DNA of 64,000 nt, taken from assembly GCF_036971445.1 (NCBI RefSeq), contig NC_091476.1:102672001-102736000 (forward strand). Direction: 5' to 3'. The position numbers and the translations under genes were made by a program. This stretch comes from Narcine bancroftii (taxonomy: Eukaryota). Below, one piece after another: positions 3,298 through 56,182 of the stretch. The notes under the pieces are model-generated. The model ran no database searches. It saw nothing but the letters and a program-made list of their open reading frames with translations, and had not been told where the DNA came from. The first letter of the stretch is position 1, and every line of letters begins with the position of its first letter.

Positions 3298-3318
3298 CGA
3301 TCCTTTCTTGAGAAGACC
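3298..3318 (-). CDS. CD3: CD3 21-nt micro-exon (GSSQERI)
   Basis: tttctttttattcag|GGTCTTCTCAAGAAAGGATCG|gtaag, phase 1-1, in frame with the Ig exon. Confidence 0.75.
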
Positions 3319-4846
3319 CTGAATAAAAAGAAATTTAAGAAGTCAGTTATACAGGACAGCACCTATCTCATAAACATTGACAGCAATGGTATTGGGTGCA
3401 TTTACTTACACACACACACACACCTCTGCTGGTGTAACTTCCTTGGATGTGAGCAAAGTCCTTTTAGGCAATGCAACCCGACTAGTTTCTCTTTTCTCTT
3501 TCCTTTCTTACTTTTATGCTGCAAGAATATAGACCTCAAGCCGATCTTGGAATTCCGACAGATGTTACCCTCCTACAAACAACTGATTCTGTGGTAAGTG
3601 TGCTACAAGTTGGGCCACAAAAGTCTACAAATAAGACCTGAAGTTTGGGCTTGTGCTGGCAACTTTCTAAGCATTCTGTGTGTTGTATGTGAAAAAATAA
3701 ATATGAAATTTTAAGAGATAAGCAAAGCCCTATAGCCATACAAAATCATTCTTAAGATCTGGTATTTTTATTCATTGAGTAGTCTCTGAAGGGGGAAAAT
3801 GTTACATGTAGCCTAGATTGTTTTATTGCAAATGGTGCCATCATTTCCCTTTGGACAAAAGGTTTGTGCTAGTGAAAGTTTATTTGGGAACAGATATACA
3901 AGAAGTTCTCATGGAACTTTACCTGAAAAAACCATCACCAAACATCCAGGAAAGAAAAACAATAATTATTTCATTAACTACATGTTAGATTCTTCCAGCT
4001 TTAAAGCAAGCAGATCATAATGGCTTAATGTAACATAATGTACGTGTCCACATCAGGTGGCACAGAAGATCATTTGTAGTTCAAATGGAACATGCAAAAA
4101 CATTAAGGTTCCTTTATCATATCCAAGTTGTCCTTCAAATTACATCAAATGTAAACGATGCTCACATATTTAAACCTGATTTACATCTTCAAAGACTGAG
4201 TAAAATTGGGAGACCTTCATAAGATGAATAAAGTATGGGAGTCAGTATGCCAATGTTGTGCATTCTTAATTCATATCTTCCATTTCACCCTCAAGGGAGT
4301 CAATGCAGCGGTATTTAGGAGTCAGGCCTGCTGGAAAGAACAGCTTCATCTTAGCACCTACACATCATTCTGACCCATAACCAGGGCTCTCTACTTAGGA
4401 TTACACCAAGCCTATCTACACAAGAAATCAGCATGGTATTGTAGAAAACCGCGACAAAACTTGAATATTTCAGGCAGGGAGTGAATAGTTTGTTGTGTTC
4501 CATCAAGCGAGGTATTTCCCATCTCCTAACCTAGACTTTTATAACTAAGAACTGCAAGCCTTAAAATGAATATTTTTTTTGTTGTGCATAGCTGAAGCAA
4601 CATTTAGAAGCAAGTTCGACGTTCACAGGTTACTGTCAGGTCTTTTATAGAGGGAGTTCATTTCTAAGGGGTTGCCTCTGATCTCTGAGGTGATTGATGG
4701 GCAGAGGGAGGGTACATGCATTGTGGCCACATTGGAACCCACTTAGAATTGCCCGCATCTTTCAAAGCAAGTGAAACCCAGGAAGACCGGCCACAGAATC
4801 TTGAGCTCAAAGAGAGGAACAACTTTTGCTCGAAGGCCTTGTCTGA

Positions 4847-4852
4847 TTTATT
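4847..4852 (-). terminator. Candidate polyA signal for the piggyBac-derived gene
   Basis: AATAAA on the minus strand about 60 nt downstream of the stop codon. Confidence 0.4.
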
Positions 4853-4914
4853 TTCCCAGTCCTGGAGTATTGCAGCAGTCGTGGAGCAACAGTACAGGCT
4901 GGCCGGCGTGATGT

Positions 4915-6567
4915 TTAAGGAAGTGATCGATGGTAATCTTTGAAGCAACTGATTCTGCACAGAGGCACTTGGCAAAATTCGCACTTGAAGGACGTCTCCA
5001 CTGATCTGCCAGAGACGGTTTTGCGCTTCCACCGCGAGCACTCTCGGCACACTTTCTTGCGCCCCTCTATCTTCACCATGTTGTGCGCACTCGGGTTGCA
5101 GAAGGCCGCTTGGTATCTGGGGTCCACGGACAGGGGCAACCTGTCTCTCCCGCTCCCTCGTGCTGAGTAATCCCCACGGAGCAGCTTGGCCAAAGCTGTG
5201 CGGTAGCTGAGGTGGTCATAACGGATGGGCAGGGGTGGGTCATGAGATGAAATCTTGAAAATAAGCCAGCCATTGACAATGGTAATATTCAATGAGAACC
5301 ACAAGAGACATCTCCACCACTTTTTGGAAGGACGGCCTACAGGGTAGTAGCTTCTCAGTTGATCGGAAATATCAACACCCCCCATGTACTTGTTGTATTC
5401 CATCACAGCCTGAGGTTTGACTACCCCCGAGTTTGCAACCATCCTGGCATTTTGGTTGGTTGACAGGGTTGCGACTTGTCTCTTATCTTTCCAAATGGTT
5501 AACAGTAAGGAGGCTTTCTGGAAGAACCTAACTTCACCCTGTTTCTTCAGCTTCGTTTTCCTGGCTTCAGTGGAGATGCCTCGACGGTGGAGGTGCGTGG
5601 TGCCACACGCCCGTGTCCCGTGCTCCTCCAGGTGCTCCAGCAGAACGGGGCTTGTGAAGAAGCGGTCAGAGTAGACGTGGTGCTGGCGGTGGAAGTAGGG
5701 CTGGCAGAGCTCCATCACCACGTCGTGCCCCGTACCGTGTGGCGACTCCGTCCTCCGCCGTCCCGTGTATATGTTGAAGTTCAGGCAGTAGCCGGTTGCA
5801 GCTTCACACAGCATCCACACTTTCAGCCCCCACTTGGTCGGCTTGGCAGGGGCGTACTGCTTGAAATACAGCCGTCCTTTGTAAGCAACCATGGCCTCGT
5901 CGACACTCAGGTCGCGGCGCGGAAGGTAACGTTGGCCAAAGAGGGAACGCACGACCTCCATGAGGGCTCGGACTTTGTACACTGGGTCATGATTGGGGTC
6001 GGACTTGGGCAGAGCCCACCTGTTGTCTCGCAGGTGAAGGTATTGGCTTATTTTCCAAAACCTGTCCCTGGACATGGCCGAAGTGATCCACGGGCAGCGG
6101 AGGGCGGTGTCCTGGCTCCAGTACAGAGAGATGCGAGGCAGTTGTTTGATGCCCATCATTATGTTGATAGCGAAGAAAGCCTTGATTTCCTGGGATTCCG
6201 TGGGAATCCAAGACGGGTCCCTTTTGCCTGCTTTCTCTTGGCACTGTACAGCGTAGCGATTGGTTTCCTCAGCTATGGTGTCGAATAGAGTGCTTGGCCA
6301 AAGTAAACTGAAGTAATCCAGTGGACTGGCAGTGCTCGGGAGCTGGTGCTGAGGACCCGTGGGCTCGGCGAAGGCCGGTACATGAATCTCTTCAAGAGTG
6401 GAAGTCCAATCCACATCCTGACGCCCCTCTTCCTCGCCATGAACGGGCAAGCCTCTCTCCTCAAAAACATTCACACCGCTCTCAGGTTCCATTACAATGT
6501 GAAGGTCCAGAGTCAATTGGAATCTTCTTCCCCAAACCGGTTCCTTCATTGACAGAACACATAACAT
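4915..6567 (-). CDS. piggyBac transposase-derived protein (PGBD4-like), intact single-exon ORF; alternative start at 6492
   Basis: 550-aa ORF containing SVDEAM, YSDRFFTS and MGGVDISDQ (DDD triad), KPTKWGLK, and a C-terminal Cys-rich domain (VCREC...FKCEFCQVPLCRISCFKDYH). No stops or frameshifts. Confidence 0.93.
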   Translation of the reverse strand: MLCVLSMKEPVWGRRFQLTLDLHIVMEPESGVNVFEERGLPVHGEEEGRQDVDWTSTLEEIHVPAFAEPTGPQHQLPSTASPLDYFSLLWPSTLFDTIAEETNRYAVQCQEKAGKRDPSWIPTESQEIKAFFAINIMMGIKQLPRISLYWSQDTALRCPWITSAMSRDRFWKISQYLHLRDNRWALPKSDPNHDPVYKVRALMEVVRSLFGQRYLPRRDLSVDEAMVAYKGRLYFKQYAPAKPTKWGLKVWMLCEAATGYCLNFNIYTGRRRTESPHGTGHDVVMELCQPYFHRQHHVYSDRFFTSPVLLEHLEEHGTRACGTTHLHRRGISTEARKTKLKKQGEVRFFQKASLLLTIWKDKRQVATLSTNQNARMVANSGVVKPQAVMEYNKYMGGVDISDQLRSYYPVGRPSKKWWRCLLWFSLNITIVNGWLIFKISSHDPPLPIRYDHLSYRTALAKLLRGDYSARGSGRDRLPLSVDPRYQAAFCNPSAHNMVKIEGRKKVCRECSRWKRKTVSGRSVETSFKCEFCQVPLCRISCFKDYHRSLP

Positions 6568-7939
6568 TTTCTAAAATATTGTGCTGTGGGGAAAAAAAAG
6601 ATGTAATAATGAAATGTTAATTAGATCTTTCTAATGCCCCCATGCTAGTAATCAGTTTACGAATTGAGGGTGAAGGATCCTGCAAATTGTTCTTGTTTCT
6701 CTCAGACAGTTGTAGGATGTGTTCAGCTAGACAATGGAATAAAAGCACATAGTCATAGTGGAAAGGGGGAGTGATGGGCACAGTGGTCATCTGGAACTGG
6801 CTCATTCCCTCCCTGGTTTCTTCCTATACCTCAGAATATAAACGTTGACGTTCTATTTTGGAGAGGTCAAAATCAAGTAAGTTTCCCTGTTGGTATCCAA
6901 AGATCCACGGACCTGCCATGTTAATGCTCCTTGACCTGCTGAGTATTTCCAGCACCCTTATTGGCTTCTCTGGCCACCTTCAGGAGTGCTGATGCTTCTG
7001 TGCTGCACACGTGCAGAACTTTCTCTGCTCTTTCTTCTCCCAACATTTCTTCCCAGAGACCAGGAAAGTGTTTCCGTTGAATCGGGATGTTATGCCGTGG
7101 ATTTCATGGGGTCCAAAGTCAACGATGACGACTCCCACATTCATTTCTACCCGACTTCATTGTGGTGGCTCTGTCCTGGCAGCGAGACGGGGCATAGCCA
7201 GGAAACAGGGAAGAAGACTCTGAGGCGTTACCCTGATCCTACCAATACAGTGATTTTTTTTTGGATGATTGGTACAGCATTACTAATTACAGCATAATTG
7301 GTTAGATGTTGTTGAGTGCGTTGCAACGTGGGGATGCTTTTGGTGTGCTCATCTGCTAAGACCAATGTCACTTGCCTCCAATTGTTTATGCCAAAGCATG
7401 ATAAAACTGAGATAACCGTGAATATTGTGGATCGACGGTTACCAATTCCTGCCCTCTCCCGAGTCTGCAGGACACCAACTCTCTCCCCTTCATGGTACCA
7501 ATGAGCCAGATGATTGTTAATAGAAATCTGGGGGCTCACAGTGACCATGATATTAAAAAAAAAGTTTTATATTTCTAAACCGCTGAATTGGATTTATCTC
7601 GTATTTTGATTATTAACCACAAAACCTTGCCTCTATTACATGGCTGAATTACAGAATTATTACAGCACAAAAAGAGGCCCCGTGGATCTGTACGACAGCA
7701 ATAAACTTACCCCAATCCCTCATCCCACCTCTGTTCTCTCGCCAATTCCTTCCAGGAAGACACTTAACTAGGTCCCGCTTCTAAGCTACCACTGAACCAG
7801 CCTCCATTTCTGCCTGAGAGTCCATGTCACAAACCATCCAGTCACTAAAAGAAAATCCCGTCTCAGTTGATCCATTTAAACCATCTTCATTTTCTGTCCC
7901 CGAGTTCTTGATTTTATAGAGTGAGTGGTATCTTTAGCA

Positions 7940-8200
7940 AAGTATGTGATTGGGCGACGCCATGTGCTGAGCAGAGAGACTTCCCTCGGAACAGCCAAGC
8001 ACTGGGAATCGGATGGGGGCGGGCGGAGGTCGGATCTGACAGGGAGATTATACTACGCAGGCGCACCGGGCGGTGCCCCGGAGGATCCGAGAAATCGTGC
8101 CCGAAGCCGGGTCCGGAGCACGCGGGGCGGGGCGGCGCGAGGCGTGTGCGCAGGTAATGGGTTATTCCGTGCCAAACCCAGAACTGGCCAACCCGTCGTA
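7940..8200. promoter_or_regulatory. CpG-rich housekeeping-type promoter inside the CD3 intron (probable promoter of the piggyBac-derived gene)
   Basis: ATTGG at 7949-7953, YY1-like CGCCATGT at 7958-7965, GC boxes at 8015-8023 and 8124-8133, NRF1-like CGCAGGCGCA at 8056-8065. A minus-strand donor ggg|gtaagt lies at 7711/7710. Confidence 0.55.
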
Positions 8201-9082
8201 TTGGGTATACGGGTGAAGTCTTTCATTAAAAGAAACACGATTGCAAACAAGGGCTGCAGCCACGGTGGGTGTCAGTTAACATGTGAGATTTACTGTTCTC
8301 AAACCTGCATGGACAGCTGTGGGTTGAGCTACTTTTCAAAGAAGGATATCATTCAGGACATTTATTTTGCACCGTAGTCATGAAAATTAACATTAAAAGA
8401 CAGATCCGAGGAGATGCAATCAAAGCAAATTATATAAAATGCATTTTTTTTAATTTAAAAAATCGATTGACCAAACATTTTAATTCGGTGAAACGGTTTT
8501 TAAATTTGCTGGGATAGTGCTTTTTAACCACAACAGGTTTTCTAAAAAAGTGTAAACTATTTCAAGAATCGGACGATTGTCATCAACCCGGTACGTGCGC
8601 AAGGTTTAAAATGCAATTAATTTCTACCCTTGAGTGGTTTTGCACATGTCTGAATTGTTGTTTCATTTCATTTTATAAAAGTTCATAACTTTCTGCAGCT
8701 TCGTTCAGGGTGAGAGTTTCACTACGCGAAAGCCGTGCTCGGGACGGTCGGAGCAAACCGCGGAAAGTGGGAGAAACGCCGCGGGTCAGGCAGCATCCAG
8801 GGAGAAACACGGTTCCTCCACGGGGACCAGTGGCGACCCGCCGAGTCCCTCCCGCTTCTCATGGTTTGCTCCAGACACCTGCCGCTGCCTTCCTCCGAAC
8901 GTTTTCTGGCTGGAAGTTGCTTCACACCCGGCAGCAAGAAATATATCACAACCTCCCCTGAAACGGAACCAAATGTGAAGCTTCAATTCTCAATCCTTCT
9001 CCTTCTTCTAAATGGAAAGTAAATTCGGATTGATGGCGAAAATGTGGCTTTTAGTTCGTGTTCAGTTTGACATCTCACCTAC

Positions 9083-9106
9083 CCGAGGCTAACTTCAAAT
9101 ATATTC
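9083..9106 (-). CDS. CD3: CD3 24-nt micro-exon (GIYLKLASG), end of signal peptide
   Basis: aatgtag|GAATATATTTGAAGTTAGCCTCGG|gtaggt, phase 1-1. Completes the leader with an A-S-G cleavage-type end. Confidence 0.6.
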
Positions 9107-9354: not shown

Positions 9355-9400
9355 CGAAGAACAAGCCCATTACCAACACCAGGCTCTTGTCAAGTTGCAT
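9355..9400 (-). CDS. CD3: CD3 leader exon (MQLDKSLVLVMGLFFG)
   Basis: ATG at 9400 in an aagATG context, hydrophobic stretch, phase-1 donor G|gtaag, 46 coding nt. Confidence 0.7.
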
Positions 9401-19518: not shown

Positions 19519-19628
19519 TCAACACAAATACCATCAGAATTGCAAGAAGAACCAATCAATTCAGAGACGCTCAGTGAGTACAGACTGGCTCCTAACCAAC
19601 TATCAATCGTCCTTCACACGACCTTTGA
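19519..19628 (+). CDS. SAXO-like exon 2 (QHKYHQNCKK...WLLTNYQSSFTRPL)
   Basis: ttccttctctcctttag| ... |gtaaga, phase 2-1, open, and continues the Cys/His motif. Confidence 0.8.
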
Positions 19629-20355
19629 GTAAGAACTAGTATTTCACAGTAATGTGGCAGGACATCTGCACTTTATCTTGGTTGGGTGGTATTTTCTTTC
19701 TCTTGGGCTTTTAGGAACCAGCTGAATGGATCCAAGAGCTGGAGATAGGACTCAAATAGATTTCAGTCAAAGGGGCAGAGAATCACACAATCACCTCTCA
19801 ACACTGGGCAGATTGGTGGTCTCAGATCATCGAATAATTCCCGTGCCCTCCCAATTCTTGTTTTTTGGGATACATTTAACAAAGGAAGACATTCTTTGCC
19901 ATCTGCTGAACCTTAAATGGGTGCAGAAGACACTATTAATTCAACTGCCTTTGCCTTCTTCATGCTGCCAAGCTTAGGACAGCCAGCTTTTAGGACTTAC
20001 TGGGAATATCCAGGAATGAATGATGTTTCTTGGATGCTACTGTGAACAAACTCTTTAAAACAACTACAGAGGTATTGAAGAAAATTCTTTTTTTGGTAAT
20101 TTTTCCTTAATTATGAAAAGAATTCCTATTTGTGATTGTAAATTTTATTTTTATGGACTTCATATGCTCTCTTTATGAAAATAACTTGTATTTAATAAAT
20201 GATTAAACATTGCACCACAGAGGTGCAATGAATTAAAATGTATTTATCCCACAAGCAGTGAGAATGCTGAATGACCAAAGGAACTGCTCATATTGACCAT
20301 CCAAGACCCTCATATTCACAAAGCAACATTTATTTATCTGTCTATATAAACACAT

Positions 20356-21539
20356 GGCTGTGTTCTGGCACCAACCCTCTTTTCAATTTTCTTCAGCATG
20401 ATGCTGAACCAAGCCATGAAAGACCCCAACAATGAAGACGCTGTTTACATCCGGTACCGCACGGATGGCAGTCTCTTCAATCTGAGGCGCCTGCAAGCTC
20501 ACACCAAGACACAAGAGAAACTTGTCCGTGAACTACTCTTTGCAGATGATGCCGCTTTAGTTGCCCATTCAGAGCCAGCTCTTCAGCGCTTGACGTCCTG
20601 CTTTGCGGAAACTGCCAAAATGTTTGGCCTGGAAGTCAGCCTGAAGAAAACTGAGGTCCTCCATCAGCCAGCTCCCCACCATGACTACCAGCCCCCCCAC
20701 ATCTCCATCGGGCACACAAAACTCAAAACGGTCAACCAGTTTACCTATCTCGGCTGCACCATTTCATCAGATGCAAGGATCGACAATGAGATAGACAACA
20801 GACTCGCCAAGGCAAATAGCGCCTTTGGAAGACTACACAAAAGAGTCTGGAAAAACAACCAACTGAAAAACCTCACAAAGATAAGCGTATACAGAGCCGT
20901 TGTCATACCCACACTCCTGTTCGGCTCCGAATCATGGGTCCTCTACCGGCACCACCTACGGCTCCTAGAACGCTTCCACCAGCGTTGTCTCCGCTCCATC
21001 CTCAACATCCATTGGAGCGCTCACACCCCTAACGTCGAGGTACTCGAGATGGCAGAGGTCGACAGCATCGAGTCCACGCTGCTGAAGATCCAGCTGCGCT
21101 GGATGGGTCACGTCTCCAGAATGGAGGACCATCGCCTTCCCAAGATCGTATTATATGGCGAGCTCTCCACTGGCCACCGTGACAGAGGTGCACCAAAGAA
21201 AAGGTACAAGGACTGCCTAAAGAAATCTCTTGGTGCCTGCCACATTGACCACCGCCAGTGGGCTGATAACGCCTCAAACCGTGCATCTTGGCGCCTCACA
21301 GTTTGGCGGGCAGCAGCCTCCATTGAAGAAGACTGCAGAGCCCACCTCACTGACAAAAGGCAAAGGAGGAAAAACCCAACACCCAACCCCAACCAACCAA
21401 TTTTCCCTTGCAACCGCTGCAATCGTGTCTGCCTGTCCCGCATCGGACTGGTCAGCCACAAACGAGCCTGCAGCTGACGTGGACTTTTTTACCCCCTCCA
21501 TAAATCTTCGTCCGCGAAGCCAAGCCAAAGAAGAAGAAG
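20356..21539 (+). mobile_element. RTE-clade LINE, 5'-truncated, with an open 359-aa C-terminal ORF
   Basis: ORF 20398..21477 contains LLFADD, FTYLG and the C-terminal CNRCNRVCLSRIGLVSH. Ends in a (GAA)n tail. Confidence 0.93.
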
Positions 21540-22305: not shown

Positions 22306-22442
22306 ATGTCCTGCCCCGTAGCAGCAAGAGACCATTACGCACTCCGCCACACTCCAACCCACCAGCCATGCAATGGGAAACCACCCAGCATTCAGAATTT
22401 GGGCCAAAAGTTCTGAAGGAACAAGCAAAACCGGGCGATGGG
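22306..22442 (+). CDS. SAXO-like exon 3 (VLPRSSKRP...MQWETTQHSEFGPK...GDG)
   Basis: ctcag| ... |gtaagt, phase 1-0, with an Mn-like TTQHSEF motif. Confidence 0.8.
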
Positions 22443-24918: not shown

Positions 24919-25041
24919 GATTTCATTGCTCCCAATGTCAGAACAAAATTCAGCAGCCCACACGACCCACAGAAATTCCTGAGAATTTCTGCAATTTGCC
25001 AGAACGCACAAAGCCCATTGGAGATGGCTTAAAGTTTGAAG
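24919..25041 (+). CDS. SAXO-like exon 5 (GFHCSQCQ...DGLKFE)
   Basis: ttccattctctag| ... G|gtttag, phase 1-1, open. Confidence 0.7.
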
Positions 25042-27973: not shown

Positions 27974-28109
27974 TGCAGATTTCAACACAGTTCAGAGAAA
28001 TTCTTATATTGGATGGGACACGACTCGTTATCCCCGCCCCAACCTCATTAAATACAAGGATGAGTTGACTGGATTGGAAGAACCCTTTGACAGCGACACT
28101 GTGACAAAG
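27974..28109 (+). CDS. SAXO-like exon 7 (ADFNTVQRNSYIGW...FDSDTVTK)
   Basis: cttccccatcctgcag| ... |gtaact, phase 2-0. Confidence 0.8.
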
Positions 28110-29440: not shown

Positions 29441-29556
29441 GGGAAGATTGAAAGTACATCAGTCACTGGACGAGATTTCACCCCGAAAAATGCCTGCAAG
29501 CTGATCTGCTCAGCTCTCCAGCAAAACAACACTCTTGCCCACCATGAAGCCTGCAG
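29441..29556 (+). CDS. SAXO-like exon 9 (GKIESTSVTGRDFTPK...)
   Basis: ataacag| ... AG|gtaac, phase 0-2. Confidence 0.75.
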
Positions 29557-30997: not shown

Positions 30998-31103
30998 CCC
31001 ATTACCTTTCCCAATGTGCAAGCTGCAAGCCTATCTGATTCACCAGCATCTCAAGAATGTGAAAAGTTCCAACAGATCTATGCCTATGACATGCACACAT
31101 TAA
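30998..31103 (+). CDS. SAXO-like terminal exon 10 (PLPFPMCKLQAYLIHQHL...stop)
   Basis: ctttcactttttcag|, phase 2, open to TAA at 31101-31103. AATAAA at 31547-31552. Confidence 0.65.
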
Positions 31104-32284
31104 GACCACAGCTATGGCACAGGAATACCAAACAGGATAGCAACTTCATCTCACCAGAGCCTATATGAATCAAGTAACCAGCCATTTGCCTTGGATATTG
31201 TCGGAAACAGCAATGCCGAAGCACTCACCATTTTTTCCCACACCAAATGGGGAAAAAAAGCAGTTCCATCTGCATACAGGCAACTAGAAAAATCAATGAA
31301 TGTTGGCCTTACTGACATAGTGAAAGATGCATCCTTCCAGTAATATTGGATACCACGTATTCAAGACTTTTGTGAGAATACCTCCAGGATAAATCAGCAA
31401 TTATATCTTTGTTTAATATTTGCTAATCAACATGTATTTTGGGAATTTTTTAAAAAACACACAGATTTGCTCCATAAACTCAAAGTGGGCGAGCTCCATG
31501 TTGTGAGATTAATTATAGAAATCATGAACCAGGATTTTGTTCAGAAAATAAAAATATTGCTCATAGACCAAATTATCCTTTCACCAAAACCTAAAAATCA
31601 CCCAATTGATCGAGAGAAGTGTTTTATTAATGCCTTAAACTTCCTGTGATGACGGTAAAATTAAAAAAGCAGTTTCATATACCTGTATTTAATTAACCCT
31701 GGCATTATCTCTCTTTGTTATTTTTGTGTTATTTTGGGTTTTCTAAAACTGACCATACCAATGATATAATCACAAGGCAAGTTGCATATTTAAAAAAAAA
31801 TCTCAGGCAGGTTATGAGGCATTGTGATCTCTTTAACCTGCACTCACAGGTTCCATGATGGGGAAGGATATTGGTGAAAGAGTTTGCTCCACTGCCACAA
31901 TTTTTAGGTGAGCAATGTTCAAAGTGTGTATTTGGATGAATTAAAATGTCCAAATTTCAAACTAATATCACTTGAAAATGAAGTTAGCAGTAGGATACAC
32001 ACATCAGATCTTCAAAAATCAATAAAAATTCAACATTCACATGACTGTCTGTATATCAAACAGAACTATAATCACACAGTATAAACTTTATATTAAAAAG
32101 GACAAAATATTAACAGAATTTAAAAAAACTGTCATTTCTCCTGAGTTCCCACAAAAATCCAAGACCCACAGAAATCCAAGAGCAGGCATGAGGAAACATC
32201 TGTCAATGAAGTCTTTTTTTTCCATGGAGTGCTATGGTCCCAGTGTAATAATCTCCACATACAGATGACAGTATATTTAGTAGT

Positions 32285-33611: not shown

Positions 33612-33814
33612 CTACAAGAGGAAAGAAAAACAATTTCACTTTTTAGCCATACTGCCAGAGACTAAAACCTTGTTTAAAGTCCACACAGTATTGACGATGA
33701 TGAGAGTTTATTGTTCATCACACATGTACAATGTACAAATGCAATGAAACTCTTGCTTGCTGCAGCTACACCAAATTGGGACCACTTCAATTCATTATTT
33801 CACTTAAAGCTCAC

Positions 33815-33999
33815 CATTTTTATTCTTGGCCTCCTTTTCCTTCTTCTTCCTGAGTAGCCCAGCCATTGGGTCACCATCCCTTTCTCTCTCACGTAGAAGG
33901 CGGTCCAGATCTTCGTCATCAATGTGTCGTGCAAGTGGTTTTTGCATCTCATGAAGAGCATCCTCTATGTTTTGCCTTTGCTGCTCTTTCTGAGCCATC
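33815..33999 (-). CDS. BUD13: BUD13 exon 9 (MAQKEQQ...EMQKPLARHIDDEDLD...GDPMA)
   Basis: Conserved Bud13 domain, phase 2-1. Confidence 0.95.
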
Positions 34000-34516
34000 C
34001 TGAAACAAGTCATGCCAAGAATTAATAGCACTGGAAATAGCATAGAGAAGGACGGATAATCGAGACTGAGCAAAGGAAAAGTAGAATGTGAGGGAATGTG
34101 CAGGGATAAAAGAGGCATGAAAAGTAAAAGATGTGGCTGGGGATGCAAAAACCATGGACAAGAAAGAATACTGATACCTCTAGATGCAAATGACATTGAG
34201 GAGGATAGTGGTTAGGTTGAGGGTATGGGAGAAAAATTAGACAGAGGTTGAATATGTCATTGGGAGGGAGGTGGAATGAAAAATGGTGAGCAGAAGGGGA
34301 AATAAGTGTGGGATTGGGAAGGTAAGAGAATTACAACGTAAAAGAGGGAAGAATGCAAGGAATTAGAAATCAAACTGTAAGAAAGATGTATGTTAATCCA
34401 TAATTGTGAGGAAGAAACTCCAACTGCTGTGGTATGCTGAATCTGGTATAACAGTATGACCAGAAATCACATACTCAGTACAAAGATGAGATTCATTATG
34501 GTTCTGTCGCTCTCAC

Positions 34517-34655
34517 CCTTTGCCCCATTGGGCATATTTTTCAAGTTTTGCTGCTTTCTCTGCTTCCTTCTTCTTCTGTTCAAGCCGTTCCTGATCCAAG
34601 TCCCTCTTTTTCCCTGATTTATCTCGGAACACAGTGATGGCATTTCTAGAATCAT
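34517..34655 (-). CDS. BUD13: BUD13 exon 8 (TVFRDKSGKKRD...YAQWGKG)
   Basis: Conserved motif, phase 1-2. Confidence 0.93.
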
Positions 34656-36138
34656 CTTCAAAATAGAATTTTTAAAAATGTCAGCATTTGTTTGGGAATA
34701 TTTCACCTTGACTACCAGCCACAGCTCACACTGAGTTGTTGTGCAAAGCAATTTCAAGCTATCCATTACAACATTTAGGCAGGACGACAAAGTAGCACTT
34801 GATTGGAATGACATGCACATGGGACTTTGAGTTAGTACAGGGTATGAACAACTTGGTAACAGCTAGCAATTCACTGGACCTCTCAGCTGGGAAATGCCAC
34901 AAAGCACAAGCATTTGGATACAGAGAAACAAGATGGAGAGAATCTATTCACTTTACCCTGCAGTATTGGTTGAATTCAGAAAGAGAACATGGTATTGGAG
35001 CTAAGCAAGGGTAAGGAGACTGCCTATTAACACTTCTAACAACAGCACACTTTCTCCGATTATCTCATATTTAATGTCCCAAAAATTTGAACCAAAATGG
35101 TTGCCCGTAACTGACAATAAATGTTTATCCAGTTTTTTTAATAAAAAATGTCCACTATTTCATGCTATAGAAAATCATTCCCTGCTTCAAAAATTCTGAA
35201 GAAATAACTTCAAGCTCTTAGCTGCAATTTTACATGGATAATTACTGGTCATAGATTGCCTAATTAAAGTGTAAACATTTCGTCCATTCAGAATCCTTCA
35301 TAATGTTAAAAGGCCACATTAAGTGACTATAATTTCTTCTGCTATTGTGGGAATGTCACGAATCTAATTTTATCACTATATAATTGATATTATTCACATG
35401 AATTGATGCTGTGACTTCAAATGTGGTAGGTCAGAATATTTACAGTGACTTGACCAATGCTCAGTCCAAATGTCCATTTTTGCATTCTATTATTCCATCT
35501 TTTATTTTTATTAACTAAACAGTACAATTCACCTGCATTCACGCAAAAATTCCAGAGTAACATTTATTAAAAAAGAGGAAATTTTAAAACGTGAAAGAAT
35601 TAGTATAAAGTGTCAAGAAAGTGAAAGAGAGAATAAAGAATGAAAGGATGACAGAGAGAAACTGAGAAACAAGCAATAGAAAAACAGAAAATAGACAAAC
35701 TTTAATTTTGGAGTTGATTTGCTCACAATCTTTAATATTAGCAAAACAGCATTTATTACTGTAGAAAAGTCAGTGATTTTTGGGGGTCAGATGACAAATG
35801 CACTTTTGAATTATTAAACCAACAGGCTACGAAGACCCACATTCTCTTCCCAGTCCATGATGAATAAAATGGGACAGGATTAGTGAAACTCAGTATTCCT
35901 GAGCAATATCAGCCAAGGGCTGTGATGCTATACACCTAATAGAATGTTCAGGAATTTAAACAACAGATTAAATGAAGCATCAGGCTCCATGTTGATGCCT
36001 CCACATTTGCTGATACCCTGTTCATGTTTATGGCAGGAATATAGAGACCTATAGAATCAGCAAGCTCAGGGGAACAAAGTTCTCAAAGAATCGTGTTAAA
36101 CTGCAACTGCTGGGAGTTCCCTCAAGCTGAATCGATAC

Positions 36139-36253
36139 CTGCTAAGTGCTCGGCAGCTCGCTCTCTTTTCCTCCGGTCCTCTTTCTCTTTCCTTAATGTA
36201 TCTGTCGATACCAGACCAGCCTGACCCCCAGATAGCATCTCATTCCCTTGTGA
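36139..36253 (-). CDS. BUD13: BUD13 exon 7 (MLSGGQAGLVSTDTLRKE)
   Basis: Conserved G..AGLV motif, phase 0-1. Confidence 0.9.
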
Positions 36254-39200
36254 CTGAAACACAAGATTTTGTAAGTCCATCCATTTATGTGTTAGAATCT
36301 TAAAGACAGCAAGATTAAAAATCCCCACATTCCAACAGATCAATGTTGATTTAAAGACCAGCTATTTATTCCTCTTTCCAGACTCCACCATTAGTTCTTT
36401 ACTTTAAGTGACTTTTCTGAGATAGTAACAAGTGTTTTAGATGAACACAAAATTCTCATTAATTAAATTTGGAAAAATACATCAACCCTGAATATATCAT
36501 AAATTACTGGGAATTTATCTTAAATTCTTTTAGTTTTGAAATTATCCCCAAAAAAGATTCTTCATGGCCATTCAACCTGGCTTGTTTATGCTCCATACAA
36601 ATCTCTTCCTATTCAACCCACAATCCCATTGTTAGATCTTTCTTTCCTCTTTCATGTGATTATTCCATTATATAATTAGTGCTATCTAGCTTGTGAGTAC
36701 TCTCAGGATAAAGAAAACTTTCTTCTAAATTCTCAATGTAATTTACCAGTAACAAGTGTACAACCAAATGTAAATATTGAAGGAAACACAAAATATTTTT
36801 CTTCACAAATATCCTACATACTGAAAATATGGCCTCTACCCACTTTTGGATTAGACTCCTGAGGAGCCAACACTATGCATGGCATTAGCCAGTGCCACTG
36901 CAGAGATTGCCAACAGAAGACAATTGCTGGAGTAATGGTTGGGGAAGTAGAGAGTTCTGAGATATGAGAGGGGGGAATGGGATGGCAGAGGAATAAGGAT
37001 GGTTGAAGGGAAGGTGGGGATGGAGATTTGATGGGAAGGGTTGAGTTGGTGGTCAGGCCAGTAATTGGAGGAGGTATGTGGGGAGCTAATAACAATGTAA
37101 AATTAAATGGAGGCTCCGATATGAAGGGTGAAGACCTTCTATGCATGGCAATTTTGCAGAAGTGATGCCAAACAAATGTGACCACTTTGAGCCCAGAGCC
37201 TCTGTGCATTCACATCACATAATGTATCTTTAACAATGCAAATCCATAGACCTCTGCCAAACTGAAAAATCATCAAAATTTGATGGTATAAACTCTTCCA
37301 GAATATAAAAGACTGCAGTAAGCTCAACCCAGTCTTCACTTTCACTAAAAATAATCAGCTCTTCCTTTCAAAGATCATGGTCAGTTTTACTGAAAATACT
37401 TAAGAGCCTCCAACTTTAAATCCATAAATTGAGTAAGACCCAAATATAGAAGGCCCGATAAAGAAGTTTGCAGGTGTTTTTAAATTGGTCATGTGATTGA
37501 GTGAGGTGGGAAGCTTTAGATTACAGAAAGGTATGAATGGCCTGGCCAATTAACTGGAAAGGTAGTTAAAAGATTAATTCAGAGGTAATGCATTTGGGAA
37601 GATGAAACAAGGGAAAATAAAATAAATAAGGTTTTTGAGTATCATGAAGGAGAAAGGACCTTTTGGTGTGCACCCACAGCTCTTAAAGATCGTGCAACAT
37701 ATCAATAAAAGTGGTTAAAAATGTTCAAGATCATTTTCTTGATCAGAGAATGTAACAGTCTGGTGTTTATACTGAAAATGTTTTCACTGCTCAATTGACA
37801 TCAGCTAAATAATATTGATAGCAAGAAGAAAGACTTGATAAGCTTTGGGTTGTTTTTTTTTTGAAAAATGAGGCTAAGGAGAGATTGTGTACAAGATTAT
37901 AAGGCCCCTGGGCTGGGGAAATAGAAGTACCTATTTCTTTCAGCAGAGAGATCTAAAATAAGGAGCGATTGATTCAAAGTAATTGATAGAAGGATTGGAG
38001 GATAGAGGAGAGAAAAAACCCAGATGGTACTCAGGATCTGGCGCTTATTGCCTGTATCGGTGGCAGAAACAGAAAACTTTATTCAAATACTTCTTCAATG
38101 TTCTGCACTTGAATAGTTATGACCCACAGGGCTAGCAACCTAAAGGCGGAATTAGGCTCTGTAGTCACAAATACAATGGGCCAAATGATCATTTTCTTTT
38201 GGAGACATGGGTGCATAGCAAATGTGAAAGTGGAGGACGCAATTCACATTTAGCTTACACAGGTGGTCATTGAATTATGGAGGGGAGTGCATTCCTAGAA
38301 AATTACCTATATCATAATCTTCTGTGACACAAATTCCCCCTCTTCCCAATGAATCCCATGTTATAAGCAGAGATGTGTTCCAACAGGATGATTTTCTCTC
38401 ATATTAAGCCATTTTATCAGCAATGAAAAGTGACAGGCTACCATTATTTTACAGCCAAGGCTAACATAAGACTTGGGGGGTGATGGATGAGGTTCAAGCA
38501 AAAGAAGCAACACCTTTTGTCAATTTTTATTTTAGACACTTGATACCGTTGACCAATACATTTTGAATATGACATCACCATGTCAATTTGGTTGGCAGCC
38601 ATGTGTACAAGTATAGCACTGCTGCACTTTTAATTTATGAAGCATTCTCTCTAATGTGAAAGGCTTGTGGATAAGAAAGGGTTGAGGAAGAGGGGATATC
38701 AGGGACAGGGATGGGATTCAGGACTGAGTCTTATGGAAAAAAGATAGGAGTTATAGGTTAAAGTACAGTGACTTGGTGGAAGTAAAGGCCAAAGCATTAC
38801 TTTAAGGAGCTTGCCACAGCTACCGCAGTTTCCAACAACGCAGCACATCTGAGAAAATGCCTCACAGATCAAGAGCATACTGCGCTGCATTCGGAGACGT
38901 CCATTCACATATCCTTAGAATTGAGAGGGTATGGAAGAGGGACTCAGCTGTTACTGCCAAACCAATTGCTGTCATATTCAAATATCATTGCCCCACTGTA
39001 TTGAATGACAAAAGGTAAAAACTGATAAAAATGTGTTTCTTTCACATTTTGTGTTTATTTATTTATCCCACTCACACATAATTCCATATTACAAATTGTA
39101 TTCTGTATATCAAATATTTGGGACATTATCTGTGAATTCAGAATGTGTGAATGGCAAATTTCTAAACACATCTAACTCAGGGAGTCAGTTCCAGGCAACT

Positions 39201-39429
39201 CTGTTGCTCATACAGTACTACAAACTTTAACATTCTGACCAATTATTAATCTAACCAAGTTGCCCTTTCCACAACATCAAATAAACATGGTCCTTTAACA
39301 AGACAAGCCAGTGTCTAGGGAACAGAAAGTCAAGTAAATAGGTCTGAACTAACAGACACACAGCACTTGGGGCTTACAACTCCACGCAGAAGCTGTAGTA
39401 AACTGTACTTAAGAACAAAAACAGAAGAG

Positions 39430-39925
39430 GAGTAGGTCCGATCCACTATATGATACAGCTACGTCTGATCCGATCTTGGACTTTCCTCCCGATCACCTAT
39501 AACCATCAATTCCCCAACAAAGCAAAAATCTGTTCATTGTGGTCTTTCATGTAGTCAATAATTTAGCCTTCAAAGCTTTATAAGGATTGAGAATTCTCAA
39601 CATTTACAACCCTGACAGAAAAGTTCCTTCTCACCAGTTTTAAATGGGGGACCTCACATTGCAAAATTATGCCTGTGGTTTGAGTGAAACATCCTTTCAG
39701 TGTCCACCCTATCAAGTCTCTTCAAGTTTATGTCTTAATAAAGTTATCTCTCATTCTTCTAAACACCAATGTGCATTGGTCCAACCTGCTAATCTTTTCC
39801 TCATCTCCATCTCAGGATTCAGCCCAGCAAATCTTCTCTGAACTGTCTCCATTTCAAGTATGTTGATCCTACAGAAGACCAAGACTGTATGCAGTACTCC
39901 AGGCATAGTGTTACAACTGCAGCCA
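39430..39925 (-). mobile_element. Degenerate CR1 3' region
   Basis: Resembles the CR1 at 58150-58700 (gaccaagactgtatgcagtactccagg). Confidence 0.55.
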
Positions 39926-40436
39926 TTCCTATAACACTGCCCTTAGGAACGAAAACTGAAGGGGAAATATATTCCAAAAGTTTCACTCCTAGATCTTGGC
40001 ACTTGTGTTCCAGAGTAAAATTTCAGACAGATAAAAAGCAGAGGAGTGGAAACCAGGTCAATAGATCCAATACAGAGAAACCCATTTACAGAAACAAGCA
40101 GTGGATGGAGTGGAGGGTGTGAAATATTTGATGAAAGCTTCCTTACATGCCCTACCTTACCATTTACACTCCTGCTTCAATTAACTTCAAATGGCACCAT
40201 CAACATGACTTACAGAAAATGCATGAAAAAGGACAATCCTGCTTCCTTTCAGCTATCCACTGTCAAATTTTTACAGCATTTTTAATCATCACAAAATGCT
40301 CCACCACAGCCAACAAAATTGGGAGGAACTCACATGGAAATGCCAACACTGACAAAACCAGCACCTTCAAACTTATGAAGCTTCAGTTGTCCTGGCTATT
40401 GCTAAGTCATACCAGTGGACAACCACCTGGACCTAC

Positions 40437-40708
40437 CTTTCTGCTGGGACTTAAGTCTTGACTGGCAACTTTCCCCCTCGAGGAAGTTGGCTTACAGATA
40501 GATTGCCTCTTCTGAGTGGGCAACAGATCGGAGTTTCCTGAGCCCGGCCTCTGGTCTGAGGCTTGAGACCCCAGCTTCTTTTTCCGTGGCGGTGACAGGT
40601 CAGAGTCATGACCTCCCTTTTGTGGGGGTGAAAGGTCAGAATCGGCATTTTGTCGTCTCCGTGGAGATCCTCTTGCTCTTCTGTCCTTGTGTCTCACTGG
40701 GGACACAG
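40437..40708 (-). CDS. BUD13: BUD13 exon 6 (DSDLSPPR repeats)
   Basis: ctag|CTGTG...AAG|gtaggt, phase 1-0. An alternative in-frame donor lies at about 40413. Confidence 0.85.
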
Positions 40709-41688
40709 CTAGGTATGAAATTTTCACAGTAAAAAAAAAATCAATATTCTTAAATTGTAAAATTGAAATTCTAGACAAAAGTACAAATTTGCAACATCTG
40801 GACCTCAACGTCGAGCCTTAGTCACACACGAGAGGAGCATGTTGTCAGTTAACTGTTGGGATAACTTTACATTCAACCTTCATTATACTTAGCCTCTTAT
40901 TTTTAGGAAAAGTGTAGAGAGCTTTATTCTGCATGTACTATCTGCCTTAGCATTGATTGAGATGATGGTTGCCTATTCCCAATTCAAATTCCCATCTCCT
41001 GTTGCTCTGGGCATAATACTTTAGGAAAAGCTCCATGTCTCAGAAAGAATGCAGACAAAACTTCAAATGGTACAAATGATGAGCGAGATGAGGTGTGTGG
41101 GGAGTAACTACTGTTCTGCTTAGTTCAAAGGGAACATGTGTTCAAATTTATGACTATCTGCAGAGAACGGATTCCATTGGCAAAAAAAATAACAAAGTGC
41201 AGAGCTTGGAAAATCAACCAAAGAAATGCAAGATTATTTTAATGCAGCTAGTTGTTGGAACCTAGGCTGAAACACCTGAAAGCACAGTGGAATGTAAAGG
41301 AATAGTGACTTGCAAATATGTTAAATTAATAATTGATAAATATGTAAAGCTCTTAGAAAAGAGCAGGGGAGGGACTAATTTAACAAATATTTAAAAGAGG
41401 CAGCACAGATCTGATGGGTCAGGAATTCTGTGTTCCATTCAACCTTTGGAAACAATTTTTGTCATGACAGAAAACCACAAAGGCTTTGACTGGCCTATAC
41501 TGGGATATTTTGTGCATCAGTTCACTTCCTTGCTGCACCTGCCTCAGCTTACTGGGAACCATTCAATCTTTTTCAGGCTGAAGACAGGTCAAAGTCAGAA
41601 CAGTTTTAAGATTTCTGGGCAATGAAGGGTTTAAGGATCATTGTTTCTACAAGGAACTAAAAATTAAGGGGAATTATACCACACTTAC

Positions 41689-42641
41689 CATATGACGGGG
41701 CTGTAGATTGGATTGATTTTTCTGCATTTTTCTTCCGAGGGGCTGAGAGGTCAGGAGAAGCATGGCGTCTCCTCCGAGGAGGTGAAAGGTCAGAAGAATC
41801 GTGGCGTCTCCTCAGAGGAGGTGAAAGGTCAGAAGAATTGTGGCGTCTCCTCCGAGGGGGTGAAAGGTCAGGAGAATCGTGGCGAACCCTCCGAGGGGGT
41901 GAAAGGTCAGGAGAATCGTGGCGAACCCTCCGAGGGGGTGAAAGGTCAGGAGAATCGTGGCGAACCCTCCGAGGGGGTGAAAGGTCAGGAGAATCGTGAC
42001 GAACCCTCCGAGGGGGTGAAAGGTCAGGAGAATCGTGGCGTCCTCTCCGAGGGGGCGAAAGGTCAGGAGAATCGTGGCGTCCTCTCCGAGGGGGCGAAAG
42101 GTCAGGAGAATCGTGGCGTCCTCTCCGAGGGGGCGAAAGGTCAGGAGAATTGTGGCGAACCCTCCGAGGGGGTGAAAGGTCAGGAGAATCGTGGCGTCCT
42201 CTCCGAGGGGGTGAAAGGTCAGGAGAATCGTGGCATCCTCTCTGATGGGGCGAAAGGTCAGGAGAATCGTGGCGTCCTCGCCGAGAGGGTGAAAGGTCAG
42301 GAGAATCGTGGCGTCTTCGCCGAGAGGGTGAAAGGTCAGGAGAATCGTGGCGTCTTCGCCGAGAGGGTGATGGGCCAGGAGAATCATGGTGTCCTCTCCA
42401 AGGGGGTGAAGGGCCAGGAGAATCATGGTATCCTCTCCGAGGGGGTGAAAGGCCAGGAGAATCATGGCGTCCTCTCCGAGGGGGTGAAGGATCAGGAGGA
42501 TTGTGCCACCAGTCCCGTACAGGTGAAACACCTGGAGAATCGTGACGCTGTCTTTTGGTAACTGAAGGATCAGGTGAAAGCGATCCTATGTTTTTCTTAG
42601 TAAGCCGAGAACCATAATCCATCCTTTGTCCTGGTAATGAA
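41689..42641 (-). CDS. BUD13: BUD13 exon 5 with about 21 x 13-aa (RHDSPDLSPPRRx) repeats
   Basis: cttctttttttaag| acceptor (phase 2), G|gtaagt donor, within ORF 41657..42670. Confidence 0.92.
41735..42550. repeat. 39-bp coding minisatellite
   Basis: A gagggggtgaaaggtcaggagaatcgtggcgaaccctcc-like unit repeated about 21 times. Confidence 0.95.
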
Positions 42642-43912
42642 CTTAAAAAAAGAAGCACACTTTCATACACTGAAATGTGATGTCAAGAACAAGACCTCAG
42701 AATTTTACTCAACTATTTTAATTATCTATACAACATATTCTATTATAGCTTGGCTGCAAAATGACACAACAGGTCATAAAGGCAGCATGCCTACACCCAC
42801 CTCACAGCAGGTGGCAGATTTGCATCTCTTCCCACCTTCAGCCATCAGAGGCCAGAGCAAAAATTCTCTCCAAATCATTTTTAGTTCTCTCCCTCACTTA
42901 AAAAAAATCTTTAAGCCTACCTCTTCCATGAAGAATTTATGTACCTGCTCTATTTTTCACTAAAGCTCTTTACAGCTGTATAAACAGACACAATAGAGGG
43001 GAGTGAATTAGAAACAAATCACTTCCAATTGATTGACAATGTACCTGCAGCCAAGAGGCAAACCAGCTGATCATTGATATATATGGACTATGTCTTCCCA
43101 AATCATCTACTATTGTAGCAGATTCTCCTGTTTGTTTTTCCAAGTATGCATATAACCATATAACCATGTACGGAGCGGAAACAGACCATGTTGGCCTTTC
43201 GAGTCCACACCGGTTCACTGATTTTGCGCGCCCTCTTCAGGCATTGGTCCCGGTAGATCTTCATTCAATAATGATGGGCTAATTCAATGCAGGTGGAATC
43301 TTATTGAAATTGAAAGCAAGATTGTTGTCCTGGCACCACACAACCAGATTCTTGATCTCCATCCTGCTTTCTGACTCATGGTCATCATCTTGGATCTCCG
43401 AAAATCTTATCGACTAAAACTTACCTTTATAAACATTAAGCAGTCTCAACGGATTGCAGCTACTTGAGGATGGAAGTCCCAAAGTAAATTAAGGCTCAAG
43501 AACATTACCTTCAAAGTTGGTGCAAAGAAGTGAGATATAAGGTGTAATCTTGAGACCCAGCTCACTAATGTCGTCACCCACCTGCATCAAGGAGGACACA
43601 GATAGACAAATCCTACCTGGATCTAGCGGCAGTGTCCGGAATTGAACACTAGGACTATATGGACCAGGACTTTTACTTGTATGAGCTCAATCTTTCCCAT
43701 ACAATAATCTAATCTGCTTACTTCGTATGGACTCTGACATTTCTTGAACTTTAGTCATATATTTCCTCTTCCAGTGGGAAGCTTTCCCTTACATCCATGA
43801 TACCAAAAGTAATAAAAAAATGTTCTAAAGGGAAGTGGAGCAAATAATAATTAAATATATCAGTAATAGACTACAGTCTCACCACCCATTAGTGTCTGTC
43901 ATTTAAACTTAC

Positions 43913-54026: not shown

Positions 54027-56182
54027 TTCTTTCTTTGGCTTGGCTTCGCGGACGAAGATTTCTGGAGGGGGTAAAAGTCCACGTCAGCTGCAGGCTCTAT
54101 TGTGGCTGACAAGTCCGATGCAGGACAGGCAGACACGGTTGCAGCGGTTGCAGGGGAAAATTGGTTGGTTGGGGTTGGATGTTGGGTTTTTCCTCCTTTG
54201 TCTTTTGTCAGTGAGGTGGGCTTTGCGGTCTTCTTCAAAGGAGGTTTCTGCCCGCCGAACTGTGAGGCGCCAAGATGCACGGTTTGAGGCGATATCAGCC
54301 CACTTCCGGTGATCAATGTGGCAGGCACCAAGAGATTTCTTTAGGCAGTCCTTGTACCTTTTCTTTGGTGCACCTCTGTCACGGTGGCCAGTGGAGAGCT
54401 CGCCATATAACACGATCTTGGGAAGGCGATGGTCCTCCATTCTGGAGACGTGACCCATCCAGCGCAGCTGGATCTTCAGCAGCGTGGACTCGATGCTGTC
54501 GACCTCTGCCATCTCGAGTACTTGGACGTTAGGGATGAAAGCGCTCCAATGGATGTTGAGGATGGAGCGGAGACAACGCTGGTGGAAGCGTTCTAGAAGC
54601 CGTAGGTGACGCCGGTAGAGGACCCATGATTCGGAGCCGAACAGGAGTGTGGGTATGACAACGGCTCTGTATACGCTAATCTTTGTGAGGTTTTTCAGTT
54701 GGTTGTTTTTCCAGACTCTTTTGTGTAGTCTTCCAAAGGCGCTATTTGCCTTGGAGAGTCTGTTGTCTATCTCGTTGTCGATCCTTACATCTGATGAAAT
54801 GGTGCAGCCGAGATAGGTAAACTAGTTGACCGTTTTGAGTTTTGTGTGCCCGATGGAGATGTGGGGGAGCTGGTAGTCATGGTGGGGAGCTGGCTGATGG
54901 AGGACCTCCGTTTTCTTCAGGCTGACTTCCAGGCCAAACATTTTGGCAGTTTCCGCAAAACAGGACGTCAAGCGCTGAAGAGCTGGCTCTGAATGGGCAA
55001 CTAAAGCGGCATCGTCTGCAAAGAGTAGTTCACGGACAAGTTGCTCTTGTGTCTTGGTGTGAGCTTGCAGGCGTCTCAGATTGAAGAGACTGTCATCCGT
55101 GCGGTACCGGATGAAAACAGCGTCTTCATTGTTGAGGTCTTTCATGGCTTGGTTCAGCATCATGCTGAAGAAGATTGAAAAGAGGGTTGGTGCAAGAACA
55201 CAGCCTTGCTTCACACCATTGTTAATGGAGAAGGGTTCAGAGAGCTCATTGCTGTATCTGACCCGACCTTGTTGGTTTTCATGCAGTTGGATAATCATGT
55301 TGAGGAACTTTGGGGGACATCCGATGCGCTCTAGTATTTGCCAAAGCCCTTTCCTGCTCACGGTGTCGAAGGCTTTGGTGAGGTCAACAAAGGTGATGTA
55401 GAGTCCTTTGTTTTGTTCTCTGCACTTTTCTTGGAGCTGTCTGAGGGCAAAGACCATGTCAGTAGTTCCTCTGTTGGCGCGAAAGCCGCACTGTGATTCT
55501 GGGAGAATATTCTCGGCGACACTAGGTATTATTCTATTTAGGAGAATCCTAGCGAAGATTTTGCCTGCAATGGAGAGCAGCGTGATTCCCCTGTAGTTTG
55601 AGCAGTCTGATTTCTCGCCTTTGTTTTTGTACAGGGTGATGATGATGGCATCACGAAGGTCCTGAGGCAGTTTTCCTTGGTCCCAACAAAGCTTGAAAAA
55701 CTCATGCAGTTTGACATGCAGAGTTTTGCCGCCAGCCTTCCAGACCTCTGGTGGGATTCCATCCATGCCTGCTGCTTTGCCACTTTTCAGTTGTTCAATT
55801 ACCTTATATGTCTCATCCTGGGTGAGGACCTCATCCAGCTCTAGCCTTACGGGCTGTTGAGGGAGCTGGAGCAAGGCGGAATCTTGGACTGAGCGGTTGG
55901 CACTGAAAAGAGATTGGAAGTGTTCTGAGCATCGGTTGAGGATGGAGATCTTGTCGCTGAGGAGGACTTTGCCATCTGAGCTGCGCAGCGGGCTTTGGAC
56001 TTGGGGTGAGGGGCCGTACACAGCCTTTAGAGCCTCGTAGAAACCCCTGAAGTCGCCAATGTCCGCGCTGAGTTGGGTTCGCTTGGCGAGGCTAGTCCAC
56101 CACTCATTTTGGATCTCCCGGAGTTTGCGCTGAAGATGGCTGCATGCGCGACGGAAGGCTTATTTCTTTTCTGGACAGGACG
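54027..56182 (-). mobile_element. RTE-clade LINE, 5'-truncated, one premature stop (54822)
   Basis: ORFs 54822..56021 (NYRGITLL, ESQCGFR, DLTKAFD, GVKQGC, LFADD) and 54084..54512. A 7-bp TSD gccatcc is at 54020-54026 and 56183-56189. Confidence 0.95.

Follow-up and report, generated by a model that had tools for sequence, protein, structure and literature searches.

Does an intact piggyBac transposase frame in an intron of a CD3 gene represent a transposon that merely looks intact or a gene of its host, and, if the latter, is it expressed together with CD3? The frame lies in the window, i.e. the whole stretch of 64,000 nucleotides from Narcine bancroftii (NC_091476.1, positions 102,672,001 to 102,736,000) that was analysed here. 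This piggyBac-derived open reading frame (ORF; 4915-6567, minus strand) is located inside the first intron of a CD3 gamma/delta-type gene and on the same strand. A sequence-only reading of the window had described 550 codons without lesions, and translation bears this out with 550 aa from Met1 and no stops. Under a simple model in which indels are ignored, the neutral probability of a stop-free ORF of this length is 6e-7 at 0.2 substitutions per site. Met26 (ATG at 6492, minus strand) is the start common to the orthologues, whose homology to the 550-aa ORF begins there; it yields a protein of 525 aa (P0002).

A Pfam search of the 550-aa ORF matched the whole PF13843 core model (1-349/349, E 9e-86). 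The Cys-rich C-terminal domain (4930-5088, minus strand), which had been called complete, is indeed recognised as the PF13842 zinc finger with 29.3 bits against a cut-off of 24. The protein thus belongs to the piggyBac superfamily by its core with a DDD triad and its C-terminal Cys-rich zinc finger. The CpG richness that had been noted for the ORF is real (o/e 0.66 versus 0.35 in the whole window), but it does not discriminate, because two LINE-like ORFs in the window reach 0.63. These belong to two similar reverse-transcriptase copies at 20350-21477 (plus strand) and 54084-56159 (minus strand), which we take to be LINEs and which are probably young. Their ORFs are long (375 aa; 245+445 aa), so the statement that nearly all other transposable elements of the window are decayed or truncated has to be tempered: not every one is badly decayed.

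A mobile piggyBac element would be expected to have terminal inverted repeats (TIRs) next to TTAA and multiple copies, and neither was found for this ORF. No TTAA-anchored inverted-repeat pair is present within 5 kb of it at any of five stringencies, in agreement with the sequence-only reading, whereas the same test recovered a pair in 12/24 free relatives used as a control. A further search showed no terminal pair either. The DNA of the ORF has a single match in the 3.3-Gb genome (G000), with no near-identical copies found, and its catalytic region, searched as protein, has one match among 12 scored candidates. PF13843 is matched four times among 11 candidates, at full length only by this gene; the other three matches are one PGBD5-like exon (27% identity) and two broken relics. 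All these counts are lower bounds for this one genome. The PGBD5-like exon (L107, G000:C15:62306225-62306647), which presumably is part of PGBD5, represents a separate gene. An identity of the window gene with PGBD5 was considered and rejected on account of the intact triad, the Cys-rich domain and this separate exon on C15. In G000, the gene is single-copy, as domesticated PGBD genes are according to the definition in the accessible part of PMC5381638.

The host locus was delineated with contigs of three runs from one study (X1-X3), which we assume to be RNA; the contigs show spliced joints. In all three runs the leader exon (9354/9355) is spliced straight to 3317/3318 and then to the Ig exon. 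The coding part of the leader exon (MQLDKSLVLVMGLFF, phase 1) occupies 9355-9400 and is single-copy; a 21-nt micro-exon of CD3 body A at 3298-3318 closes the host intron (9354-3319), and the Ig exon of body A follows at 2146-2337, identical to the annotated CD3 protein P0150 (all minus strand). The ORF had been placed on the same strand between CD3 micro-exons at 9083-9106 (minus strand) and 3298-3318. The strand and the latter exon hold, but the body A mRNA seen in the contigs does not include 9083-9106, and the peptide encoded there is missing from P0150. In contigs of X1 and X3 one base is absent at a homopolymer in the 5' part of the leader exon (9419), which reflects either an allele or an assembly error. 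Upstream of CD3 and on the same strand lies the BUD13 gene (33804-42682, minus strand), with PF09736 at 33807-34211 and an SPxRxRHD repeat exon at 41657-42682.

According to the contigs, three tandem CD3 gamma/delta-type bodies share the one leader exon. Two further 21-nt exons joined to it sit outside the window, 16 kb and 41 kb ahead of its first position (G000:C17:102655701-102655721 and G000:C17:102631215-102631235); both have AG/GT ends and are followed by their own Ig exon in frame and, farther on, by a transmembrane exon. Hemiscyllium likewise has three different CD3 bodies (P0124, P0156, P0157; isoforms X2-X4) behind one leader. The piggyBac gene separates the shared leader from the first of the three bodies. 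A single leader exon serving three CD3 chains makes the locus unusual in itself. Beyond the three minus-strand bodies and facing them is a transmembrane exon on the plus strand (G000:C17:102605386-102605505) that we take to be CD3-epsilon-like. Catshark CD3 was reportedly the subject of work by Pettinello in 2017. The accessible part of PMC6795676 mentions, by citation, two CD3 copies in catshark.

Orthologues with 71-78% identity are found in Heptranchias, Pristiophorus, Scyliorhinus torazame, Heterodontus, Hemiscyllium, the chimaera Callorhinchus and Chiloscyllium punctatum; all except Callorhinchus are sharks. The first six genera contributed one top protein match each, along with one Logan protein, and the next matches are at about 50%; the C. 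punctatum orthologue turned up as a cluster member and not as a best match. The piggyBac protein is conserved to 73-78% compared with 61-70% for CD3 body A and exceeds CD3 in 6/6 species pairs, a protein comparison that serves as a proxy for Ka/Ks and is not a dN/dS value.

In annotation records, the piggyBac gene sits at the CD3 locus in five sharks; these placements are read from the records and not from genome alignments. Four are given by accession. In Hemiscyllium the piggyBac protein is isoform X1 (XP_060702870) and CD3 isoforms carry the next numbers (871-874), in S. torazame it is isoform X1 (XP_072342411-413) with CD3 isoforms 414-415, and in Heptranchias isoform X1 (XP_067826911) with CD3 isoforms 914-918. 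The Heterodontus protein (XP_067910284) belongs to a separate gene adjacent to CD3 (285). The fifth placement comes from the Chiloscyllium gene model GCC37783, which extends from the transposase into a CD3 Ig exon and thereby fixes order and strand. Judging from the behaviour of annotation pipelines, the grouping of piggyBac and CD3 proteins as isoforms would mean that they share exons.

With these placements, the idea that the gene is still a selfish or horizontally transferred transposon of merely intact appearance can be regarded as largely refuted. Its 51-52% identity to the multi-member relatives P0010 and P0011 (the P0010 cluster has 21 members) would suit such an element; a single copy without TIRs, found at CD3 in five other species and in a clade that includes a chimaera, does not. 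Single copy, orthologues, CD3 placement in five species and RNA-type contigs speak for the domesticated host gene nested in a CD3 intron that had been postulated from the sequence.

Against this reading, the listings include CD3 body A for 20 chondrichthyan species but no piggyBac orthologue for 13 of them, including Mobula, Hypanus, Hemitrygon, Amblyraja, Leucoraja, Stegostoma, Rhincodon, Carcharodon, Cetorhinus and Mustelus. In these 13, either missed annotation or real loss may be the cause. For C. punctatum the RefSeq clusters contain no orthologue, yet the GenBank model holds most of the ORF. This suggests that the unlisted orthologues are in part annotation gaps, with losses also possible. 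A short-protein search gave no chondrichthyan fragments of the gene among its 13 matches, and a metagenome scan detected no shark orthologue DNA (best match 48%).

Trees of 63, 23, 25 and 35 rows were calculated from selected top matches, most of the non-vertebrate rows being unnamed. The chondrichthyan piggyBac proteins form one clade (100/100 in two LG+G4 trees). Since the placement of Callorhinchus varies between trees (with Heptranchias in the quick 23-row tree, support 82; basal in two, 91 and 82/81; unresolved in one), the branching inside Chondrichthyes is not used as evidence. Very likely, this is a gene of the host that cartilaginous fishes have inherited from their common ancestor. 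With high confidence we regard it as a genuine domesticated piggyBac gene of this group, one that has apparently not been described before.

The sister clade of the chondrichthyan proteins consists of lamprey and hagfish proteins (98/95 and 98/92, LG+G4); under a mixture model the vertebrate branch reaches only 92-93 SH-aLRT. The cyclostome genes (P0177, P0040 and P0105 in lamprey; P0019, P0142, P0179 and P0317 in hagfish) keep all four Asp, and their proteins are 53-58% identical to the window protein in the three cases measured. The lamprey gene, with a Gly/Ala-rich insert of about 600 aa after a YTGR motif, is common to Petromyzon and Lethenteron; in hagfish there are two paralogues, and the genes are shared between genera. 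As far as these sequences go, they hint at an origin of the gene in early vertebrates. Possibly it was domesticated once, early on, and later disappeared from bony vertebrates; two separate domestications within a single ancient family would fit equally well.

How is the gene expressed? Apart from short gaps, 4433-6313 is covered by seven contigs of X1, which show no letter differences. Coverage of the ORF comes from this one run: contigs of X2 and X3 are absent on it and those of X1 on 6314-6583, and uncovered stretches were given no weight. Contigs on 4433-4599 and 4616-4869 indicate a probable 3' UTR (4433-4914, minus strand), and AATAAA sites lie 3' of the ORF at 4847, 3879, 3822 and 3767 (minus strand). 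On its 5' side a strong 3' splice site is predicted (6584-6601, minus strand; 14/15 pyrimidines and CAG), with 6583 as the first exon base. Likely, the CD3 transcription unit uses the gene as an alternative terminal exon, with low expression. By analogy with PGBD3 in CSB, the 5' exons of CD3 would be spliced to the acceptor at 6583, although the contigs of the three runs contain no splice junction into the ORF.

Such a transcript would not encode a fusion of the CSB-PGBD3 type. Computed from the phase-1 leader and the 6583 acceptor, the joined frame stops after 27 codons, and its TGA overlaps the ATG of Met7. Consequently, the leader would provide only a short upstream ORF, no signal peptide would be attached, and translation of the unfused transposase, most likely beginning at Met26, would depend either on re-initiation or on a 5' end that lacks the leader. 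Two further searches agree with an unfused protein: no CD3 leader was found on the N-termini of orthologues in the homologue search (proteins <=963 aa), and the window has no GT at the place matching the donor of the fused Chiloscyllium model. Two observations stand against expression from CD3. The database model of the gene starts at Met26, which the 6583 acceptor does not explain, and in one of the four RefSeq cases, Heterodontus, the gene is annotated as separate.

The same intron contains a CpG island at 7940-8220 (unstranded; o/e 1.08, GC 0.63), which is a candidate rival promoter. A second one lies at 8690-8960 (o/e 0.91). The same domesticated gene could be driven by the first island (or the second), divergently from a plus-strand gene, with broad or germline expression, so that its seat in CD3 would be an accident of insertion. 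That the region yields transcripts follows from an X3 contig which starts in the 7940-8220 island and is spliced on the plus strand from a donor at 8153 to an exon at 19519. Minus-strand donor-like sites occur at 7711, 7729 and 8879, and the separate gene in Heterodontus fits as well. On the other hand, piggyBac is grouped with CD3 as isoform X1 in 3/4 RefSeq records, and the contigs include no minus-strand junction from the island. We consider transcription from an island possible, though doubtful. The location of the gene inside a T-cell-specific unit, as assumed by the sequence-only reading, is therefore correct as regards position only; its expression need not be specific to T cells, given the candidate rival promoter in the CpG island of this intron, where a first exon lies on the opposite strand.

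The exons of the plus-strand gene lie at 8124-8153, 19519-19627, 22307-22441, 24920-25040, 27975-28109, 29441-29556 and 30998-31165. Its first exon is located in CD3 intron 1 and its first intron spans the CD3 leader in antisense. The first junction only is taken from contigs, the later exons having been read by eye; no Pfam match was obtained for six of the exons.

What the protein might do depends on its active site. Alignment with T. ni piggyBac and piggyBat identifies D223 (SVDEAM, 5899-5901), D301 (YSDRFF, 5665-5667) and D399 (GVDISD, 5362-5373, including D402; all minus strand) as the catalytic aspartates, the same three as had been picked out by motif. In T. ni piggyBac we take the corresponding residues to be D268/D346/D447/D450. 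All four Asp are invariant in eight chondrichthyan proteins, and so are 183/311 core columns (59%) and 12/23 acidic residues. With six cyclostome proteins added (14 vertebrate proteins), 115/311 core columns (37%) and 8/23 acidic residues stay invariant, the four Asp among them in both cases. Since 59% of the core is equally invariant in the eight proteins, Asp invariance says little about catalysis. Of 21 columns invariant in seven TIR-bearing free transposases, 18 are retained in all eight chondrichthyan proteins, a count from which truncated ORFs were excluded and in which the first Asp is missing in one of the seven. Taken as a sequence pattern, this conservation is compatible with a kept active site without being proof of it. 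In the Cys-rich domain, H495, C507, C510, C529, C532, C537 and H546 are kept in 8/8 chondrichthyan proteins.

The residue after D301 is R302, whereas N or Q is found there in 7/7 TIR-bearing free relatives and N in T. ni piggyBac (DNWF) and piggyBat (DNYY). This Arg is not a mark of domestication, since the five nearest non-vertebrate or unnamed relatives tested carry it too. The preceding S300 is Phe in the seven other chondrichthyan proteins. An AlphaFold model of the protein is of moderate quality (mean pLDDT 67.5; <50 around D223 and just before D399). In a Foldseek search, E values <0.001 were obtained only for piggyBat (9C0F, 2e-22) and T. ni piggyBac (6X67, 6e-18), to which the sequence matches have E values of 1.6e-55 and 2e-38, respectively.

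These features let us predict a DNA-binding protein whose nuclease site is still usable. It would recognise a genomic DNA motif via its Cys-rich domain, and in CD3-expressing cells its most probable action there would be site-specific DNA binding or nicking. Our best single reading is that CD3 drives the expression of a protein which binds and possibly cuts DNA; we see the chances for and against it as about balanced. A suppressor of transposons that binds piggyBac ends or poisons incoming transposases, with no role in T cells, seems rather improbable to us. For such a function, the Cys-rich domain is fully kept, no other full-length piggyBac exists among the 11 scored candidates in G000 (a lower bound), and Xenopus KOBUTA is a precedent, as proposed in the accessible part of PMC5381638. 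However, no target family was identified, and 71-78% identity over several hundred million years, tighter than in CD3, would be unlike a defence against changing invaders.

Should the protein cut DNA, its position in CD3 and its invariant residues (DDD(D) and Cys-rich domain in the eight chondrichthyan proteins; the four Asp in all 14 vertebrate proteins as against 115/311 core columns) might point to an active programmed nuclease for lymphocyte genome rearrangement, comparable to RAG or PiggyMac. This is unlikely. Neither a substrate nor TIR-like targets were found, the gene is possibly absent in many species, and cartilaginous fishes use RAG-based V(D)J recombination. With similarly slight confidence we mention a wider scenario in which the gene was tamed once in the ancestor of all vertebrates, stayed catalytically intact in lampreys, hagfish and cartilaginous fishes, was lost in bony vertebrates and became a fourth product of the shared CD3 leader in sharks and rays, so that their T cells would co-express an active non-RAG DNA-cutting enzyme. 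If this were true, the cyclostome orthologues would be candidate nucleases of programmed DNA elimination or VLR assembly.

The literature searched, with subscription journals and supplements outside its scope, yielded no description of this piggyBac gene and none of the shared CD3 leader. The accessible part of PMC5381638 distinguishes nine PGBD groups, none of them specific to cartilaginous fishes, and its main text, taken without supplements, has 0 occurrences of shark, Callorhinchus or Chondrichthyes. The accessible parts of PMC10813416 and PMC13461360 do not describe the gene either; these sequences may appear under the name 'PGBD-like' in supplements of PMC5381638 (S1) or PMC13461360. Among the listed groups PGBD5 is the only very old vertebrate PGBD, and its catalytic triad is lost. 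Whether domesticated transposases remain active nucleases can be tested directly on an old vertebrate gene with DDD(D) and zinc finger, and the location of this one in CD3 makes a role in lymphocytes inexpensive to examine.

Compared with known systems, the gene is unlike piggyBat and T. ni piggyBac, which are free, TIR-flanked and mobile. With PGBD5 it shares the status of an ancient domesticated piggyBac of vertebrates, but PGBD5 has many introns and lacks the Cys-rich domain as well as three of four Asp (the latter according to the accessible part of PMC3902484). PGBD4, NeoPGBD and KOBUTA are, like this gene, single intronless domesticated ORFs with a Cys-rich domain; PGBD4 keeps DDDD, and databases name the orthologues 'PGBD4-like'. 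They are set apart by their taxon limits as given in the accessible published text, i.e. primates for PGBD4, teleosts/Neopterygii for NeoPGBD and Xenopus for KOBUTA. NeoPGBD has 649-682 aa and 'no ortholog in other vertebrates' (PMC5381638, accessible part). The closest parallel in arrangement is PGBD3, which in the accessible parts of PMC5381638 and PMC3902484 is described in intron 5 of primate CSB/ERCC6 with an upstream 3' splice site and a downstream AATAAA, and in that of PMC3902484 as an alternative 3' terminal exon. Here, too, an intronless piggyBac ORF lies in a host intron on the same strand, preceded by a 3' splice site and followed by AATAAA. In contrast to PGBD3, which has a D-to-N change, the present gene keeps all four Asp, and it has neither TIRs nor an in-frame host fusion at the 6583 acceptor. 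It is also about ten times older, the split of chimaera and sharks being dated near 420 Ma and PGBD3 to 43 Ma. The arrangement thus resembles that of PGBD3, except that the present gene is not fused, is far older and has kept its triad.
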